Shown one piece after another: positions 49,435 to 54,487 of a DNA stretch of 64,000 nucleotides; positions within the stretch are counted from its first letter, which is position 1, and each line of letters begins with the position of its first letter. The stretch is taken from contig CAIKXE010000008.1 in the NCBI GenBank assembly GCA_903831305.1, positions 25,105 through 89,104 on the forward strand, in the 5' to 3' direction. Below the pieces are notes generated by a model, which saw nothing but the letters and a program-made list of their open reading frames with translations, did no database searches and was not told where the DNA came from. The translations under genes and the position numbers were made by a program. This DNA comes from an uncultured bacterium (GTDB taxonomy: Bacteria; Patescibacteriota; Minisyncoccia; Phycocordibacterales; GWA1-40-21).

Positions 49435-50667
49435 ATGACTATGGATTTTAGGATTGAAAAAAGACTTACAGGTAAGCTCGGTCGGGCTGGTACTTTGACC
49501 GTGCCTCATGGGGTGATAGAAACGCCAGCATATGTTGTGGTGGGGACAAAAGGCACGGTCAAATCTGTGGATTCCGCTCAGGTGAAGGAGGCCGGGGCGC
49601 AGGTGGTACTTTCTAATACTTATCACTTATATTTACAGCCGGGGGATGAGGCGGTGAAGAAAATGGGAGGGTTGAATAAAATGATGAATTGGTCCGGGCC
49701 CTCTATGACGGATTCAGGTGGTTTCCAAGTTTTCTCTTTGGGGGCTGCTTATAAAAAAGGAATTTCTAAAGTCTTGCAGGTGACGGATCCCTCGCTTTTA
49801 ATTCCGGAGCGGTTTGATGATTCTGATGCGCCCCGGCTGGCTAAAATCGGTCAGGATGGTGTGTCCTTTACTTCACATATTGATGGTTCAGTGCATTATA
49901 TTACGCCAGAAAAGTCTATTCAGATTCAGCACAATATTGGTGCCGATATTATTTTTGCTTTTGACGAATGTACTTCGCCAAACGAAGATTTGAAGTATCA
50001 AGGAGAGGCACTAGAGCGAACACATAATTGGGCTCGGCGGTCCTTGGAGGAGCATATCAAGCTCGAGAACCAGAAAAGTTTTTCTGACACTTCTCAGTCC
50101 ATATTCGGTATTGTTCAAGGTGGACGAGATGAAGAATTGCGGAAAAAGTCCGCTAAATTTATTTCTGAGGTAGAAGTGGAAGGTAAGAAATTTGATGGTT
50201 TTGGTATTGGTGGTTCTTTTGCCAAAGAGGATATGCAAACCGCTGTAAAATGGGTGAATGAAATTTTACCGGAAGATAAACCAAGGCATTTGCTCGGGAT
50301 AGGTGAACCAGAAGATTTGTTTATGGGGGTTGAGAGTGGGGTGGATTTGTTTGATTGTGTTTTACCGACTAGGTTGGGAAGAAACGGCACACTTTATACT
50401 AAGGAAGGAAAAATCCATATTACTAATACTGAATATCGTCTGGATACAAAACCAGTAGAAGAGGATTGCCCGTGTTATACCTGTACGCATTATTCTCGCT
50501 CTTATATTTGTCACCTCTTTCATGGTAAAGAAATGCTCGCTGGTACTCTGTCATCTATCCACAATATTCATTTCTTAGTTAATCTGGTTAAAAAAATCCG
50601 TCAGTCTATCTTAGATGAGAATTTTGCGGAGTTTAAAGAAAGCTTTTTGAATAAATATAAGCAGTAA
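49435..50667 (+). CDS. tgt: Queuine tRNA-ribosyltransferase
   Basis: TPAYVVVGTKG; QGGRDEELR; Zn site CPCYTCTHYSRSYICHL. Start moved to MTMDFRIEKRL. Confidence 0.85.
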   Translation: MTMDFRIEKRLTGKLGRAGTLTVPHGVIETPAYVVVGTKGTVKSVDSAQVKEAGAQVVLSNTYHLYLQPGDEAVKKMGGLNKMMNWSGPSMTDSGGFQVFSLGAAYKKGISKVLQVTDPSLLIPERFDDSDAPRLAKIGQDGVSFTSHIDGSVHYITPEKSIQIQHNIGADIIFAFDECTSPNEDLKYQGEALERTHNWARRSLEEHIKLENQKSFSDTSQSIFGIVQGGRDEELRKKSAKFISEVEVEGKKFDGFGIGGSFAKEDMQTAVKWVNEILPEDKPRHLLGIGEPEDLFMGVESGVDLFDCVLPTRLGRNGTLYTKEGKIHITNTEYRLDTKPVEEDCPCYTCTHYSRSYICHLFHGKEMLAGTLSSIHNIHFLVNLVKKIRQSILDENFAEFKESFLNKYKQ

Positions 50668-50748
50668 AGTGGTTTGTTTTTATTTTCTATTTGGTGTACT
50701 GTTTCGATAGAGTTGTTGTTTTGAAACCAAAAGTTAAGGAGATAGATC

Positions 50749-51225
50749 ATGTTGGACAATGTGAAGGTCGGTCAGCACGTGATTATTTATGGTCTGGAGC
50801 AAAAGTACTACGGGGTCGGAGCAGAGGTCGTTTCTGAGGCATACAGTTGTGTTGTACATGAGGTACCAACACAAGTTGTGGCGGTCAAAGTCTTTTATCA
50901 AGAGTGGGGTCTCTTCTCTAATAATGGGGAGTGGCATGAAACGATTTTGATTATTAGTATCCATCAAATGAAGCCGGATACTTACCATGCCTTTGAAAAG
51001 AAAAGGCTAAAGATGAAGTTCGGTGGGTATTGGTCCACTGAATTACTGGCTCAACCTTTGAATCGGGAAGCAGAATGCGCCTTTTGCGGTAACCGGGTTC
51101 ATGTCAGGATTGAGATGAATCACTCGGGCTGTATTCGACAGTACGATGTCTGCCGTCCATGTGCCAAGCGCTGGGATGGCGTTTGGTCTGACTGCCCACC
51201 GGAGAAAAAGGTCAAGGCTGTCTGA
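50749..51225 (+). CDS. Hypothetical Cys-rich protein (C-terminal CAFCGN...CRPCAKRW), GC-enriched
   Basis: SD AAGGAG precedes the ATG. Composition differs from the backbone. Confidence 0.45.
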   Translation: MLDNVKVGQHVIIYGLEQKYYGVGAEVVSEAYSCVVHEVPTQVVAVKVFYQEWGLFSNNGEWHETILIISIHQMKPDTYHAFEKKRLKMKFGGYWSTELLAQPLNREAECAFCGNRVHVRIEMNHSGCIRQYDVCRPCAKRWDGVWSDCPPEKKVKAV

Positions 51226-51243
51226 ATTTGTCTCGGTTTTTCT

Positions 51244-51289
51244 GGGGCCCGCGAGTCGCATCGCGGGCCCTTTCTAATACTTGCATTTT
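51244..51289 (+). repeat. Direct-repeat copy 1 of a terminator+promoter module (GGGGCCCGCGAG-loop-CGCGGGCCC-TTTCTAATACTTGCATTT). The hairpin terminates the 50749 gene; TTGCAT-17-CATAAT drives the DUF559 gene
   Basis: Near-identical copy at 52400-52446. Confidence 0.6.
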
Positions 51290-51339
51290 AAATATTGATT
51301 TCGCATAATATAGTTTGCTATGTTTAATTTATTTAAAAT

Positions 51340-51789
51340 ATGAACAGAAACCCCTCCCAACCTCCCCTTGTCAGGGGAGGGGAAAATCCTAAAAGACTTG
51401 ATCTTAAGTTTATTCCTTATAATAAGGAATTAGTTTCTCGAGCTAGAGAATTAAGGCTAAATCAGACCCCGGCCGAAAGAGTATTTTGGGAAACTCTGCT
51501 CAATAAAAAAACTATTGAATATAAATTTACCAGACAGAAGCCAATCGATAATTTTATTGCAGATTTTTATTGTTCAAAACTCTTATTGGCTGTAGAAATA
51601 GATGGTCAAATCCATTTGGCTACAGAAAAAAGAGATCAAGAGAGAACCGATATATTGTGTTTGAAGTACGGTATTTTGGTGGTTAGATATTCTAATGATG
51701 AAGTTTTAAGAGACCCAAATGGTGTTATAAACAACCTAGAAAAAATAATACACGCGCGAGAATCTTTTCCCCCTGACAAGGGGGATTAA
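51340..51789 (+). CDS. DUF559 (Vsr-like PD-(D/E)xK endonuclease fold) protein, bounded by 14-bp inverted hairpins (CCCCTTGTCAGGGG at 51365-51378 and CCCCTGACAAGGGG at 51767-51780) inside its own coding ends
   Basis: Core LLAVEIDGQIHLATEKRDQERTDILCLKYGILVVRYSNDEV is typical of DUF559; the terminal inverted repeats were read by eye. Confidence 0.65.
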   Translation: MNRNPSQPPLVRGGENPKRLDLKFIPYNKELVSRARELRLNQTPAERVFWETLLNKKTIEYKFTRQKPIDNFIADFYCSKLLLAVEIDGQIHLATEKRDQERTDILCLKYGILVVRYSNDEVLRDPNGVINNLEKIIHARESFPPDKGD

Positions 51790-51955
51790 GGGGGTTGATT
51801 TTATTAATTTATATGGTAGGTTATATGTAGGTTGTACTTTGTATTGTGGATTGTAATGCCAATCGTATGATTGGTGCTTCCACCCTGGTGGTGGAGGAAC
51901 GGCGTTTGATGCGTTCGCCAATAATGCATCAGGTTTGTTTCAGAAAGGGGTTCGT

Positions 51956-52375
51956 ATGAACTCTCCAGTCGTGGTAGGTGCAAGGCGGGTGCTGTACCGG
52001 GGTAAGATCACCAAAGGTCCCTCGTTGCACTCTCTGATCGTGTCACTAACATTCGTTCAGACCCTCAATGGTTGGATGGAGATTCCGGTAACGTTCGGTA
52101 TTGACCCTATCGTCACCGGGAGTGCTGGGGACTTTTCCTGGAACATCTCGGCCTTCTGGATGGTCGTCCATTCATTGGGTCGCGAGGATGGTGATTACGT
52201 CAACTGGAAGATCGTGGGAGAACCAGAAAGGCGTGAGTCAGCTCAAACCATACTTCGGGCTTTCGGTGTCTCTTACGAGGGGCAACGGATACCACGAATT
52301 CGGTTTGAGATTGAGTATTCTACCTCAGGCCAGGCAGGCCGGTCTGGAGAAGTGGAGGTCTGTATTTACGACTGA
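51956..52375 (+). CDS. Hypothetical GC-rich protein (139 aa) with a ~100-nt GC-rich structured leader
   Basis: SD AAAGGGG precedes the ATG. High GC3. Confidence 0.45.
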   Translation: MNSPVVVGARRVLYRGKITKGPSLHSLIVSLTFVQTLNGWMEIPVTFGIDPIVTGSAGDFSWNISAFWMVVHSLGREDGDYVNWKIVGEPERRESAQTILRAFGVSYEGQRIPRIRFEIEYSTSGQAGRSGEVEVCIYD

Positions 52376-52399
52376 GTCTACTGTGTTCTAAACATTATT

Positions 52400-52446
52400 G
52401 GGGCCCGCGAGGTGATATCCGCGGGCCCCTTTTAATACTTGCAATT
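52400..52446 (+). repeat. Direct-repeat copy 2 of the terminator+promoter module; its TTGCAA-17-CATAAT is the uvrB promoter
   Basis: GGGGCCCGCGAGgtgatatcCGCGGGCCCCTTTTAATACTTGCAATT. Confidence 0.6.
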
Positions 52447-52477
52447 CTCCAAAATGCTATGCATAATAACCTTTCAT

Positions 52478-54487
52478 ATGTCAAACCAGAAATTTAAATT
52501 ACAAGCCCAATATAAGCCCGCGGGGGACCAGCCCAAAGCCATAGAACAGCTCGTGGCGGGATTAAAAAAAGGTTATGAGAACCAGACGCTTTTGGGCGTG
52601 ACCGGATCCGGCAAGACTTTTACCATGGCCAATGTGATTGAACAGATTCAGAAGCCCACCTTGGTGATTGCCCATAATAAAACCTTGGCGGCCCAGCTGG
52701 CTCAAGAGTATAAGGAATTTTTCCCGGATAATGCCGTACATTATTTTGTCTCGTACTATGATTATTATCAGCCAGAGGCCTATATTCCAGTGACGGATAC
52801 TTATATTGAAAAGGAAGCAATGATCAACGAAGAGATTGACCGTTTACGCCATGCTTCCACTCAGGCATTACTCACGAGAAAAGATGTGATTATAGTGGCC
52901 TCGGTTTCCTGTATTTATGGCTTGGGTTCACCGGCGGAATATGAAAAAGTAAATTTAAAAATAGCAGTAGGGATGGAGATCAGCCGAGCGGAGATGATTC
53001 GCAAATTTATCAATATTCATTTTGAAAGAAATAATACAGATTTAAAGCCTGGGGAGTTCCGCGCGGTGGGAAACTCCTTAGAAATAATGCCGGTAAACGA
53101 AAAGTTGATTTACCGGATTACTTTTGCGGAGAATAAGATAGGTGATATTGTAAAGATGGATGGTGTGACCCGGCGGATAGTGAGTGATGAGAAAACTTTC
53201 TTTTTATTTCCGGCCAAACATTTTATTACTAACGAGGAGGAAAAAAAGCTGGCAATAAAAAGTATCAAATCAGAACTTGAAGCCCAGCTTAAATTATTAA
53301 AAAAGGAGGGCAAGCTTTTGGAAGCTGAGAGATTGAAGAGACGAACGACTTATGATTTATCTTTAATAAAGGAGGTGGGTTATTGTAATGGGATTGAAAA
53401 TTATTCTAGACATTTTTCTGGTAAAGGTGCAGGCGAGCCACCAGATAGCTTACTCTCATATTTTGGTCCAGATTTTCTGACCATTATTGACGAATCGCAC
53501 GTCACCATCCCACAGCTGAACGGAATGTATGCCGGGGACGCCTCTCGTAAGAAAAATCTAATTGATCACGGTTTTCGTTTGCCATCTTCTCGGGACAATA
53601 GACCATTGAAATTTCCCGAGTTTGTGGAGCGGGTGAATCAAGTTATTTATACTTCTGCCACCCCAAGTGACTATGAACTGGAGAAAAGTGCTCAGGTGGT
53701 GGAGCAGGTAATCAGGCCGACTGGTTTGATTGATCCTGAGGTTGAGATCCGTGGAATAATAGAGCAAGGTTCATATAAAGGCCAGGTTTTTGATTTTATA
53801 GCAGAGACGGAAAAGGTAATCAAAGGTGGCGGGCGAGTGATTGCTACCACTTTGACCAAGAAGATGGCGGAGGATTTAAGCGAATATTTGAAGGCTAAAA
53901 GTATTAAAGCGGAATATTTGCACAGTGATATTAAAACGATTGACCGGATTCAGATTTTGACGGATTTTAGAAAGGGCAAATTTGATTGTATTGTGGGGGT
54001 GAACCTCTTGCGTGAGGGTTTGGACCTACCAGAAGTGGAGTTTATCGGAATTTTAGATGCCGATAAAGAAGGTTTTTTGCGCTCTGATACTTCTTTGATT
54101 CAGATCATTGGCCGAGCCGCTAGAAATGTGAAGGGCAAGGTAGTTCTATATGCTGATCATATTACTGGTTCAATCACCAGGGCTATCAATGAGACAAATA
54201 GAAGGCGTGAAGTCCAGGTGACCTATAACAAAAAGCACAATATTACTCCTAAGACAATTATAAAAAATATTCGGGATATTATGGAAGATTTGAAATCGCC
54301 ACATGATAAGGCGGTGATGGAGGTGCTAAAGATTGATCAGGAGATTATGGGTAAGAACCCTAAAAAACTGATTAAGCAGAAAGAAATTCAGCTTAATGCC
54401 GCGGTCAAAATACTGGACTTTGAAACGGCAGCTATTATCCGTGATGAACTGATTGCCATCAAAAAGGCTCTTAGTAAAAAAAGTTAG
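52478..54487 (+). CDS. uvrB: Excinuclease ABC subunit B
   Basis: FKLQAQYKPAGDQP; Walker A GVTGSGKT; helicase motifs; C-terminal UVR domain AAIIRDELIAIKK. Confidence 0.9.
   Translation: MSNQKFKLQAQYKPAGDQPKAIEQLVAGLKKGYENQTLLGVTGSGKTFTMANVIEQIQKPTLVIAHNKTLAAQLAQEYKEFFPDNAVHYFVSYYDYYQPEAYIPVTDTYIEKEAMINEEIDRLRHASTQALLTRKDVIIVASVSCIYGLGSPAEYEKVNLKIAVGMEISRAEMIRKFINIHFERNNTDLKPGEFRAVGNSLEIMPVNEKLIYRITFAENKIGDIVKMDGVTRRIVSDEKTFFLFPAKHFITNEEEKKLAIKSIKSELEAQLKLLKKEGKLLEAERLKRRTTYDLSLIKEVGYCNGIENYSRHFSGKGAGEPPDSLLSYFGPDFLTIIDESHVTIPQLNGMYAGDASRKKNLIDHGFRLPSSRDNRPLKFPEFVERVNQVIYTSATPSDYELEKSAQVVEQVIRPTGLIDPEVEIRGIIEQGSYKGQVFDFIAETEKVIKGGGRVIATTLTKKMAEDLSEYLKAKSIKAEYLHSDIKTIDRIQILTDFRKGKFDCIVGVNLLREGLDLPEVEFIGILDADKEGFLRSDTSLIQIIGRAARNVKGKVVLYADHITGSITRAINETNRRREVQVTYNKKHNITPKTIIKNIRDIMEDLKSPHDKAVMEVLKIDQEIMGKNPKKLIKQKEIQLNAAVKILDFETAAIIRDELIAIKKALSKKS

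Follow-up and report, generated by a model that had tools for sequence, protein, structure and literature searches.

In a 64,000-nt stretch of DNA from an uncultured member of the Patescibacteriota (GenBank assembly GCA_903831305.1, contig CAIKXE010000008.1, positions 25,105 to 89,104; hereafter the window), a gene for a small DUF559 nuclease lies between tgt and uvrB, bounded at both ends by hairpin modules that are inverted copies of one another. Our analysis indicates that this DUF559 unit is a long-resident, probably selfish element at the start of uvrB; with its hairpin ends, it probably represents a new form of selfish nuclease element. The reading that best joins the observations, to which we assign a probability of about 0.55, is that the unit is a selfish element of the homing type at the 5′ end of uvrB, that the direct repeats around it are copies of the region upstream of uvrB, and that their present arrangement arose by illegitimate joining. 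A first-pass annotation of the window had noticed both kinds of repeat; its observation is confirmed here, and its interpretation is partly supported. Coordinates follow the window numbering and all features of the locus are on the + strand. L-numbers (L005-L181) denote related loci or contigs, the same label always standing for the same locus.

The element extends from an ATG to the motif GGGGGTT (51340-51796), a unit whose limits are conserved among lineages in alignment, and contains a 149-residue open reading frame (ORF) for a Vsr-like PD-(D/E)XK nuclease of family PF04480 (51340-51789). Inside this ORF, as had been reported, the 14-nt sequence CCCCTTGTCAGGGG at 51364-51377 recurs as its exact reverse complement at 51770-51783. 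These are its only two copies in the 64 kb, where 0.3 would be expected, and two copies were reached in 6 of 100 shuffles. Each arm is itself a hairpin, CCTCCCCT-TGTC-AGGGGAGG at 51361-51380 and TCCCCCT-GACA-AGGGGGA at 51768-51785. The inverted similarity extends beyond the 14-nt core to imperfect modules of ~36 nt, which qualify as terminal inverted repeats: a 5′ module (51349-51384), in which an outer C-run, AACCCCTCCC, precedes the hairpin, and a 3′ module (51765-51796), in which the hairpin is followed by the outer G-run GGGGGTT. The window holds seven GC-rich hairpins with a stem of at least 7 bp, four of them in this locus. A scan of viral contigs for the 14-mer gave at least 120 single matches, a chance level for a database of that size, and is uninformative.

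The modules are conserved as nucleic acid. In an alignment of four lineages, the 24-nt core of the 5′ module, CCTCCCCTTGTCAGGGGAGGGGAA, forms 24 consecutive invariant columns, and the 3′ block CTTTTCCCCCTGACAAGGGGGAyTAAGGGGGTT contains a single variable column; the gene body in the same alignment shows synonymous changes throughout (dS 0.66-1.2). Homology with L092, L093 and L095 begins at approximately the DUF559 ATG and stops exactly after GGGGGTT (51796). In L007, 33 of 34 nt of the 5′ module are identical, though its DUF559 and UvrB proteins are 55% and 62% identical to those of the window. In the window, the 5′ module codes for a disordered N-terminal tail, PSQPPLVRGGE, and the 3′ module for the C-terminal tail FPPDKGD*; the closest homologues (66-85% identical) all retain the peptides PPLVRGG and FPPDKGD. 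However, the 3′ hairpin lies downstream of the DUF559 stop codon in L006-L008 and L178, and the hairpin-encoded residues 1-19 and 145-149 have a predicted local distance difference test (pLDDT) score below 50, so the constraint acts on the nucleic acid and not on the protein tails.

The 14-nt core has one variable position, in the loop, and it changes at both ends together. Their 5′/3′ states are TGTC/GACA in five lineages, TCTC/GAGA in L178/L179 and TATC/GATA in L006/L007; L008 (TATC/GACA) carries an uncompensated mismatch. The loop pair 27-74 is GC in five sequences, AU in two, CG in one and another combination in one, and only one of 500 shuffles reached its covariation score. The local hairpin stems are invariant and therefore uninformative for covariation. 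When the RNA of the whole message is folded, minimum-energy and centroid structures alike pair the two modules with each other (7+15 bp; z=-4.1). The two ends thus appear to be kept complementary to each other, which would fit a panhandle of RNA or single-stranded DNA (ssDNA), and equally terminal repeats that serve as templates for copying or correcting each other.

The protein itself is well recognised. It matches PF04480 with 99.1 bits (cut-off 20.6; E=1.6e-28) over 105 of the 109 profile positions, and the sequence of PDB entry 3hrl with E=1.5e-11. An AlphaFold (AF2) model built from 20 homologues has a core pLDDT of 80-96; its top Foldseek match is again 3hrl (TMt 0.85), and its core also superposes, with TMt 0.63, on 3r3p, the I-Bth0305I homing endonuclease catalytic domain. 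The match of the model to E. coli Vsr (1cw0) is weak (E=0.65). Residues D75, E86, D88, H92, D99, E101 and R116, an acidic/His core, are invariant across the 20 homologues, and the model thus predicts a restriction-endonuclease-like fold with conserved core residues. The ratio of non-synonymous to synonymous substitution rates (dN/dS) is 0.15-0.19 against three relatives, which suggests that the protein has been kept functional by purifying selection. The lower dS of DUF559 compared with uvrB was not used as a sign of transfer, since pS saturates at a lower level in so AT-rich a gene. Scans for defence systems and NCBIfam models returned a weak mREase_II match (E=0.004), a generic DUF559 model below its cut-off and nothing else. 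DUF559 homologues carry the JGI label 'very-short-patch-repair endonuclease'. One 150-residue homologue, P0041, is labelled 'leucyl-tRNA synthetase' by JGI, which hints at another insertion in or near a conserved gene.

To the left of the element, the anchor gene is tgt (queuine tRNA-ribosyltransferase, Pfam TGT; 49441-50667), followed by ORF0 and by a first copy of a direct repeat with a hairpin (T1), a putative promoter (P1) and a short uvrB stub; to the right lie ORF2, a second repeat copy (T2 and P2) and the anchor gene uvrB (Pfam UvrB domains; 52478-54487). The synteny tgt>uvrB is kept in the majority of ~90 related loci. The full order LOG< tgt> DUF559> uvrB> PBP was found in L092, L093/L094, the P0010 contig, L095/L096, L177 and L178-L180, lineages in which UvrB is 83-90% identical to that of the window. 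L092, L093, L095 and L177 contain no T hairpin, ORF0 or ORF2, and in L092, L093 and L095 the DUF559 ATG overlaps the end of tgt (ATGA in L095). L178 has an ORF0 homologue and a T hairpin of different stem sequence; there, as in L086, the order is DUF559-ORF0-T′-P-uvrB, which provides the related genome with a single hairpin-promoter copy upstream of uvrB that the first-pass annotation had suggested looking for. Since DUF559 occupies the same position with the same ends in L092, L093, L095, L177 and L178, it is ancestral at this spot and was not recently inserted here. As far as these alignments tell, what is novel in the window genome is ORF0, T1, P1 and the stub to the left of DUF559, and ORF2 and T2 to its right.

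The same junction also exists in an empty form. A scan with the UvrB N-terminus recovered 80 tgt>uvrB loci without DUF559, many with tgt abutting uvrB and others with unrelated genes in between. The five closest GTDB DUF559 genes (L006-L010) likewise lie between tgt and uvrB, and in a crude neighbour-joining (NJ) tree of UvrB they are placed among DUF559-less sisters. The empty locus L120 has an 11-nt overlap between the tgt stop and the uvrB ATG. In the filled locus L007, 934 nt replace 9 nt of an L120-type junction, with flanks 76-79% identical; the insert is made up of the 5′ module, a cargo ORF of 131 aa, DUF559, the 3′ module, and a new ATG with the first three uvrB codons. Presence and absence at one precise site, as in this sister pair, is one of the features of a free-standing homing gene.

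Furthermore, several relatives carry fragments of the element. L177 has a solo 3′ end between tgt and DUF559. L178 has two extra 3′ ends after DUF559, whose own 3′ end is degenerate, and in its strain variant L179 the full gene is preceded by an internally deleted element and a promoter of the uvrB type. In L181 (UvrB 90% identical), a PaaX/Cas2-like gene, an ORF2 homologue, a T hairpin, a DUF559 remnant, P and uvrB follow one another, the remnant between T and P being a degenerate 3′ end. A TTGCNT -35 box is located 2-5 nt past the 3′ end or remnant in L177, L178, L179 and L181, which suggests that an outward promoter accompanies the element.

More generally, the tgt-uvrB spacers of L097-L176 range from 0 to 2.7 kb and are a hot spot for unrelated cargo; in L097 the spacer contains two more ORFs, of 148 aa and 399 aa, and the gene in the L181 spacer is PaaX_M/Cas2-like. 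In the DUF559-less relative L102 (185-235), a solitary hairpin with a G-run (CTCCCCCTTAGAAAAGGGGGAG...GAGGGGGTTG) lies ~375 nt upstream of uvrB and may be an old footprint of the element. In ~600 kb of related DNA, only four hairpins of the module type were found outside DUF559 loci. L088-L091 represent the window sequence with another gene call and are not separate strain variants. Two contigs diverge abruptly from the window, L088 (1-71) at 51676 within DUF559 and L005 (792-836) at 52116 within ORF2; both stretches are absent from the window and are probably assembly chimeras or rare structural variants.

These loci bear directly on the view that DUF559 is a host repair gene, namely a housekeeping Vsr-like nuclease of the tgt-uvrB operon that works with or alongside UvrB, its modules forming an RNA panhandle (for RNase III processing or translation control, for instance) that would set its expression and keep it apart from adjacent messages, and nothing being mobile today. 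Such a role would suit a gene that lies directly upstream of uvrB in two separate clades, is single-copy with dN/dS of 0.15-0.19, and overlaps the tgt stop with its ATG in a manner suggestive of translational coupling; the panhandle predicted in minimum-energy and centroid folds, the compensatory pair that joins the ends and the start codon just 5′ of the stem would suit it as well. Yet DUF559 is missing from the 80 related tgt-uvrB loci, sister taxa included, has decayed to remnants in L181 and is degenerate at its 3′ end in L178. In addition, 75 of 80 GTDB homologues lie away from uvrB, and yet about half of the 76 testable loci of the family described below keep flanking repeats; end modules have multiplied without the ORF in L022, L032 and L179; and one lineage carries the gene as an in-frame insertion in ELP3. 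We consider the host-gene explanation rather unlikely.

The direct repeat surrounding DUF559 and ORF2 was re-examined at the nucleotide level. The near-identical hairpin-promoter copies described around a segment of ~1.1 kb are present, and they are longer than the 46 bp first given: the repeat spans ~83 nt (51243-51325 against 52399-52483), past the -10 box to ATGT. It begins with TGGGGCCCGCGAG (13 of 13 identical), continues with a 27-nt block of 89% and a 21-nt block of 76% identity at a spacing of 1156-1158, and has a core of 46-48 nt that is 83% identical by BLAST. Neither half is found elsewhere in the window. Among the other related loci, the T hairpin is absent from 168 of 176, the eight matches being copies of the window locus; the repeat is thus no common intergenic motif, one of the outcomes that the first-pass annotation had named as fatal to its proposal. 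The idea that the T hairpin is an attC-like cassette end was likewise rejected, given its absence elsewhere and the different stem beside ORF0 of L178.

Copy 1 (51243-51343) starts with T1 (51245-51270), a GC-rich, terminator-like hairpin, GGGCCCGCGA-GTCGCA-TCGCGGGCCC, followed by TTTCT. Its DNA fold has an energy of -14.6 kcal/mol (z=-5.4), and the T stems in general have z about -5. P1 consists of TTGCAT (51281-51286), 17 nt and CATAAT (51304-51309), a copy of the conserved uvrB promoter. Copy 2 (52399-52483) comprises T2 (52400-52429), P2 with TTGCAA (52439-52444), 17 nt and CATAAT (52462-52467), and the true uvrB ATG (52478). Each copy had been described as a terminator plus a promoter. 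The stems are strong and the promoter boxes are conserved in five lineages, with the P region aligning to the uvrB promoters of L177, L092, L095 and L178. The T tails, however, are short (TTTC/TTTT, 3-4 T), and a simple scanner of the + strand called P2 but not P1 (TTGCAT, 3 of 6 matches), T1 or T2, so 'terminator' and 'promoter' are used here as consensus-level labels.

In every lineage with this promoter, the uvrB -10 box, GCATAAT, lies 10-11 nt from the ATG and no Shine-Dalgarno sequence is present; the distance is 10 nt in the window uvrB and the same 10 nt at the ATG of the stub. On these grounds, the uvrB mRNA is probably leaderless. Since uvrB starts within the tgt stop region in DUF559-less relatives such as L120, the promoter seems to have arrived together with the insertion.

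Beyond the promoter, copy 1 runs on as ATGTTTAATTTATTTAAAATA, which matches the uvrB start of L092 at 18 of 21 nt without a gap and the window's own uvrB at 15 of 21 with a 3-nt gap. By this alignment, copy 1 is composed of T, the uvrB promoter and seven uvrB codons (51320-51340) fused to the DUF559 ATG; the resulting stub (ATG TTT AAT TTA TTT AAA ATA TGA, 51320-51343) ends in a stop codon that overlaps this ATG (ATGA). The T hairpin of L181 differs from that of the window by one compensatory pair and has a loop resembling the T1 loop.

The first-pass annotation had proposed a selfish nuclease cassette that entered between a terminator and the promoter of uvrB and duplicated the junction. We weighed this as a recent insertion of DUF559 together with ORF2, with the 46-bp repeat as the duplicated target junction. 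The repeats do bracket a 1.16-kb segment, the repeat is unique in the window, and relatives with a single copy exist. This proposal nevertheless fails on several points. DUF559 is ancestral here and occurs without T in L092, L093, L095 and L177, and, as copy 1 includes seven uvrB codons as well as the promoter, the junction lies inside uvrB and not between terminator and promoter. The copies are ~80% identical and differ in hairpin loop, promoter spacer and type of uvrB start, which argues against a fresh target duplication. With a length of ~83-100 nt and the ORF2 cassette between the right-hand copy and the element, which it therefore does not abut, the repeat also lacks the features of a target-site duplication. 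Finally, ORF2 is an independent cassette, as described next. We regard recent insertion with junction duplication as very improbable; the repeat is an ordinary but instructive local rearrangement that reuses the uvrB promoter and start.

ORF2 (51956-52375; 139 aa) is a GC-rich member of a rare, unnamed family. It has no Pfam match and a word search returned ORF2 itself alone; a full HMMER scan of 1.84 G representatives recovered five remote relatives (best E=1.7e-20). Its GC content at third codon positions (GC3) is 0.58, against 0.29-0.43 in the neighbouring genes except ORF0. We rejected the possibility that the region is a noncoding RNA or a spurious ORF, in view of the lack of an Rfam match, an unremarkable fold z on both strands, the five homologues, and a GC3 above GC2. 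The ORF2 cassette starts at most 2 nt from the end of DUF559 with a leader of ~160 nt (51795-51955), which is 84% identical at the nucleotide level to L181 1091-1284, starting right after the DUF559 end. Its last 105 nt are ~95% identical to L181, where the ORF2 proteins are only 37-42% identical. It folds into three hairpins in which all differences preserve pairing, has no Rfam match, and is a candidate structured leader or small RNA. The homologue in L181 stands without an intact DUF559, which marks ORF2 as an independent cassette. Other small inserts occupy the ORF2 spot, just after the DUF559 3′ end, in L092 and the P0010 contig; that of L092 (4460-4815) is an unrelated GC-rich insert of 350 nt with a 94-aa ORF on the opposite strand, bracketed by hairpins.

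ORF0 (50749-51225; 158 aa), also GC-rich (GC3 0.52) and with a CxxC...CxxC pattern, has no Pfam match either. Its family comprises three protein clusters in 5.8 G proteins, and ORF0 itself is under purifying selection (dN/dS ~0.13 against L087, a relative with 80% nucleotide identity). It lies between tgt and DUF559 in the window genome only; in L087, the order is tgt-ORF0 and the contig stops at the ORF0 stop codon. The homologue in L178/L086 is downstream of DUF559, so the side varies by lineage. An origin of ORF2 as a diverged duplicate of ORF0 was rejected, as tblastn found no similarity at E<=10; ORF0 orthologues, moreover, stay 56% identical at a distance greater than the repeat implies, which counts against such an origin.

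The architecture seen in the window is widespread in the family. In GTDB genomes of Patescibacteria, Clostridia, Bacteroidota and other groups, 76 DUF559 loci were testable and were compared with 1900 controls of the same geometry. Exact flank-to-flank inverted repeats of at least 11 nt were found in 34 of the 76 loci (45%), the longest of 54 nt in L037, against 0.6% of controls, and direct repeats of at least 11 nt in 14 of 76, against 2.1%. A hairpin with a stem of 7 bp or more is present in 57% of the 5′ flanks and in 66% of the 3′ flanks, compared with 9.5% of control windows, and the 5′ arms of the flank hairpins are 81% pyrimidine. The hairpin sequence is lineage-specific, and within repeat-bearing loci both ends of one element match. 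The hairpin-ended architecture is thus shared by homologues across phyla.

In some genomes, the modules have multiplied. L022 (2700-4240) contains ten hairpin copies as ORF-less units of 235-245 nt, resembling miniature inverted-repeat transposable elements (MITEs), on both sides of the gene; two of the units are 99% identical. L032 (3677-3863, 6922-7299) has tandem arrays of 42-nt and 84-nt modules, with an 84-nt period repeated 4.5 times and one array 2.5 kb from the gene. Two DUF559 copies occur in one Kapaibacterium metagenome-assembled genome (L032/L034). In the Clostridia, a flank of 2.7 kb is shared downstream of the element in L038/L039 and is found inverted and upstream in L048/L056. 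In the Uhrbacteria (L016-L021), the DUF559 unit lies inside an ELP3-family radical-SAM/acetyltransferase gene. In L018 (2552-4720), PDB ELP3 aligns to residues 70-463 and 648-722 of a 722-aa ORF, the first part matching ELP3 22-406; the intervening insert of 184 residues is a DUF559 domain flanked by its own hairpins. It is in frame in three genomes (L018, L019, L021), and the reading frame is broken in the others. No intein domain was recognisable in the PDB alignment or the translated insert, for which no intein profile search was made. The suggestion of a selfish cassette is therefore supported for the DUF559 unit: it behaves like a discrete unit of selfish type, with ends conserved as DNA beyond the coding sequence, with solo ends, deleted copies and MITE-like arrays in other genomes, and with an empty and filled site in L120 and L007.

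Hairpin arrays around a nuclease gene invite comparison with repetitive extragenic palindromes (REPs) and REP-associated tyrosine transposases (RAYTs). RAYTs are single-copy, vertically kept nuclease-type genes of the HUH/Y1 (IS200/IS605-like) class flanked by inverted hairpin repeats, and REPs are dispersed in tens to hundreds of copies. On this model, the hairpin modules would be a repeat family made, moved or maintained by the DUF559 nuclease, and the gene would be domesticated and not selfish. As in REP/RAYT systems (REPINs), the gene stands between inverted hairpin repeats, at 45% of loci, and some genomes have solo copies, doublets or arrays, in L022 on both sides of the gene and in L032 at a distance from it; in the window clade, DUF559 is single-copy and vertically kept. 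The modules are, however, mostly confined to the flanks of the gene and not dispersed: the window has just the two flanking copies, ~600 kb of related DNA has only the four hairpins outside DUF559 loci mentioned above, and most loci have n=2-4 copies, nearly always adjoining the gene. The nuclease, moreover, is of the PD-(D/E)XK and not the HUH/Y1 type (PF04480, not Y1_Tnp). We consider a REP/RAYT-like system quite improbable.

A programmed inversion switch, in which the 14-nt inverted repeats would flip the gene body and turn the nuclease on and off, was weighed as well. 'DUF559 domain-containing protein' appears as a table row with 14-fold enrichment among predicted targets of programmed inversion (PMC9881135), the one published hint that we found and an enrichment for which the flanking inverted modules could account, and assemblies break at the 3′ module. 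Against a switch, no recombinase was found among the genes called within ~6 kb on either side of DUF559, all 12 contigs of the window population show one orientation, and the orientation difference between L038 and L048 involves one shared flank only. The Logan contigs break at an overlap of ~30 nt (k-1; 28-30 nt) in the 3′ module that is shared exactly by relatives; since relatives carry the identical module, a branch point from co-occurring relatives explains the breaks better. We give the inversion switch almost no credence and reject it as a reading of this locus, as we do a target-site duplication, a motif common between genes and a cassette end like that of integrons.

The closest known counterparts are the free-standing Vsr-like homing endonuclease genes of the I-Bth0305I or 'fractured gene' family, which have 5′ hairpins (Dassa et al. 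2009, PMC2677866; PDB 3r3p); in architecture, REP/RAYT systems and TIR/MITE elements also come near, and the unit has some but not all of the defining features of each. As in the I-Bth0305I family, a small Vsr-fold nuclease gene, whose model matches 3r3p, would invade conserved genes or junctions, leaving an empty and filled site (L120/L007) and, in some genomes, an ELP3 gene split by or fused to the insert. Conserved hairpins lie beside the ORF in both, and signals carried by the invader for the downstream gene are discussed in PMC2677866. Genes of the I-Bth0305I family, however, belong to phages and metagenomes and lie between split-intein halves or in group I introns, whereas here no Rfam intron was found in 50600-52700 and no intein domain was recognisable in the ELP3 insert. 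Their hairpin is on the 5′ side only and hides the ribosome-binding site, unlike the two inverted, covarying modules with solo and MITE-like derivatives found here; they are also of the EDxHD family, in contrast to PF04480, for which cleavage is a prediction in this case.

With insertion sequences (IS) and MITEs, the unit shares imperfect terminal inverted repeats of ~36 nt (54 nt in L037) and ORF-less deleted derivatives beside a full copy. Unlike them, it encodes no DDE, HUH, serine or tyrosine transposase (its sole ORF is DUF559), has no target-site duplication, is usually present in one copy per genome, and has an ORF that reads through both ends. E. coli Vsr is of the same superfamily and clan, but its structural match is weak, the family is PF04480 and not PF03852, and no cytosine methyltransferase partner was found among the genes called within ~6 kb on either side. 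Rickettsia palindromic elements are short in-frame palindromic gene insertions, non-coding in themselves; the palindrome-ended insert tolerated in frame in ELP3 (L018, L019, L021) is similar, except that it carries a whole nuclease domain. Homology-facilitated illegitimate recombination and partial tandem duplication produce one illegitimate junction with homology on the other side. The junction between uvrB codon 7 and the DUF559 ATG, with a possible AAAA microhomology, and a duplicated module whose copies are of different allelic type resemble this inferred process, which would not, however, predict identical T stems with unrelated loop and spacer.

Based on these comparisons, we propose the following history. 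The element consists of one Vsr-like PD-(D/E)XK nuclease gene and two inverted end modules of ~36 nt, each made up of an outer C- or G-run and a pyrimidine-loop-purine hairpin and able to pair with the other as a panhandle. It would have entered the overlap junction of tgt and uvrB in an ancestral Paceibacteria-like genome as a selfish, site-specific element comparable to homing endonuclease genes and directed at the first uvrB codons, with the end modules as cis-acting sites in the form of either a DNA inverted repeat or an RNA/ssDNA panhandle. It would then have persisted there under purifying selection, repeatedly shedding solo ends, deleted copies and duplicated promoters. The direct repeats of the window are two copies of the uvrB upstream module, each with a GC-rich hairpin, a leaderless-type promoter and a start codon; copy 2 would drive the real uvrB, and copy 1, with seven codons of an L092-type uvrB start, would have been illegitimately joined to the DUF559 ATG. 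Most likely, a DUF559-ORF2-T-P-uvrB segment was joined to the seventh codon of a uvrB with ORF0-T-P already in front of it, an event for which re-invasion and homology-facilitated illegitimate recombination are both conceivable. In an alternative order of events, a partial tandem duplication would have been followed by loss of one (the upstream) DUF559 copy. Retention of P1 and the stub would give DUF559 a promoter and a coupled start after T1 had severed transcription from tgt. As a speculation, the end of the stub may mark the cut site of the nuclease.

Several points weigh against a selfish, homing-type element with illegitimately joined uvrB copies. The anatomy, conservation, covariation, synteny, empty and filled site and stub are seen directly in the sequences, whereas nuclease activity, target, mode of movement, promoter and terminator function and the order of events are inferred. 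A single-copy, syntenic gene with dN/dS of 0.15-0.19 in the window subclade would fit a useful host gene equally. A single old gain followed by many losses could account for the patchy distribution as well, and the NJ tree is crude. Homing does not require terminal repeats, and a homing model by itself therefore leaves the end modules unexplained; we know of no lone PD-(D/E)XK nuclease that is a transposase. No short direct repeat that would represent a target-site duplication is present at the ends of the element in the window, L092, L093, L095 or L177. The window has one copy of the element and only two copies of its hairpin in 64 kb, with no sign of spread. The covariation of the ends rests on nine sequences and perhaps two or three events. 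Finally, the T stems are identical between the two repeat copies and the loop and promoter spacer are unrelated in sequence, a mosaic that neither the recombination nor the duplication scenario explains cleanly.

DUF559 is among the commonest nuclease domains of 'unknown function' in bacteria and is routinely annotated as a very-short-patch repair enzyme. A broader proposal, which we offer tentatively and with odds clearly below even, is that DUF559 genes of this type are undescribed, phylum-spanning, compact (0.45-0.9 kb) autonomous elements: a Vsr-like nuclease whose reading frame runs through its own hairpins, with ends that would have to remain complementary in order to work as a panhandle of ssDNA or RNA, directed to the start of conserved genes (the first codons of uvrB and ELP3), bringing a replacement start or promoter and shedding REP- or MITE-like derivatives. 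Our literature search (DUF559, COG2852, PF04480, and Vsr with homing, MITE or selfish), which did not cover subscription literature, found no description of hairpin-flanked DUF559 genes, so this novelty is provisional.

Taken alone, the window has a modest message, that of a local rearrangement reusing the promoter and start of uvrB. If many DUF559 genes are hairpin-bounded selfish units, however, their annotation as very-short-patch repair enzymes would need revision. Translation of the hairpins would then account for the odd proline/glycine-rich tails of DUF559 proteins, the enrichment among inversion targets (PMC9881135) would find an explanation too, and the few proteins linked to palindromic repeat elements would be joined by a class of nucleases. 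In the Paceibacteria, the tgt/uvrB junction offers a natural series of empty, filled, cargo-bearing, decayed and re-arranged states, which is suited to the question of how such an element can enter an operon and leave an essential repair gene active.

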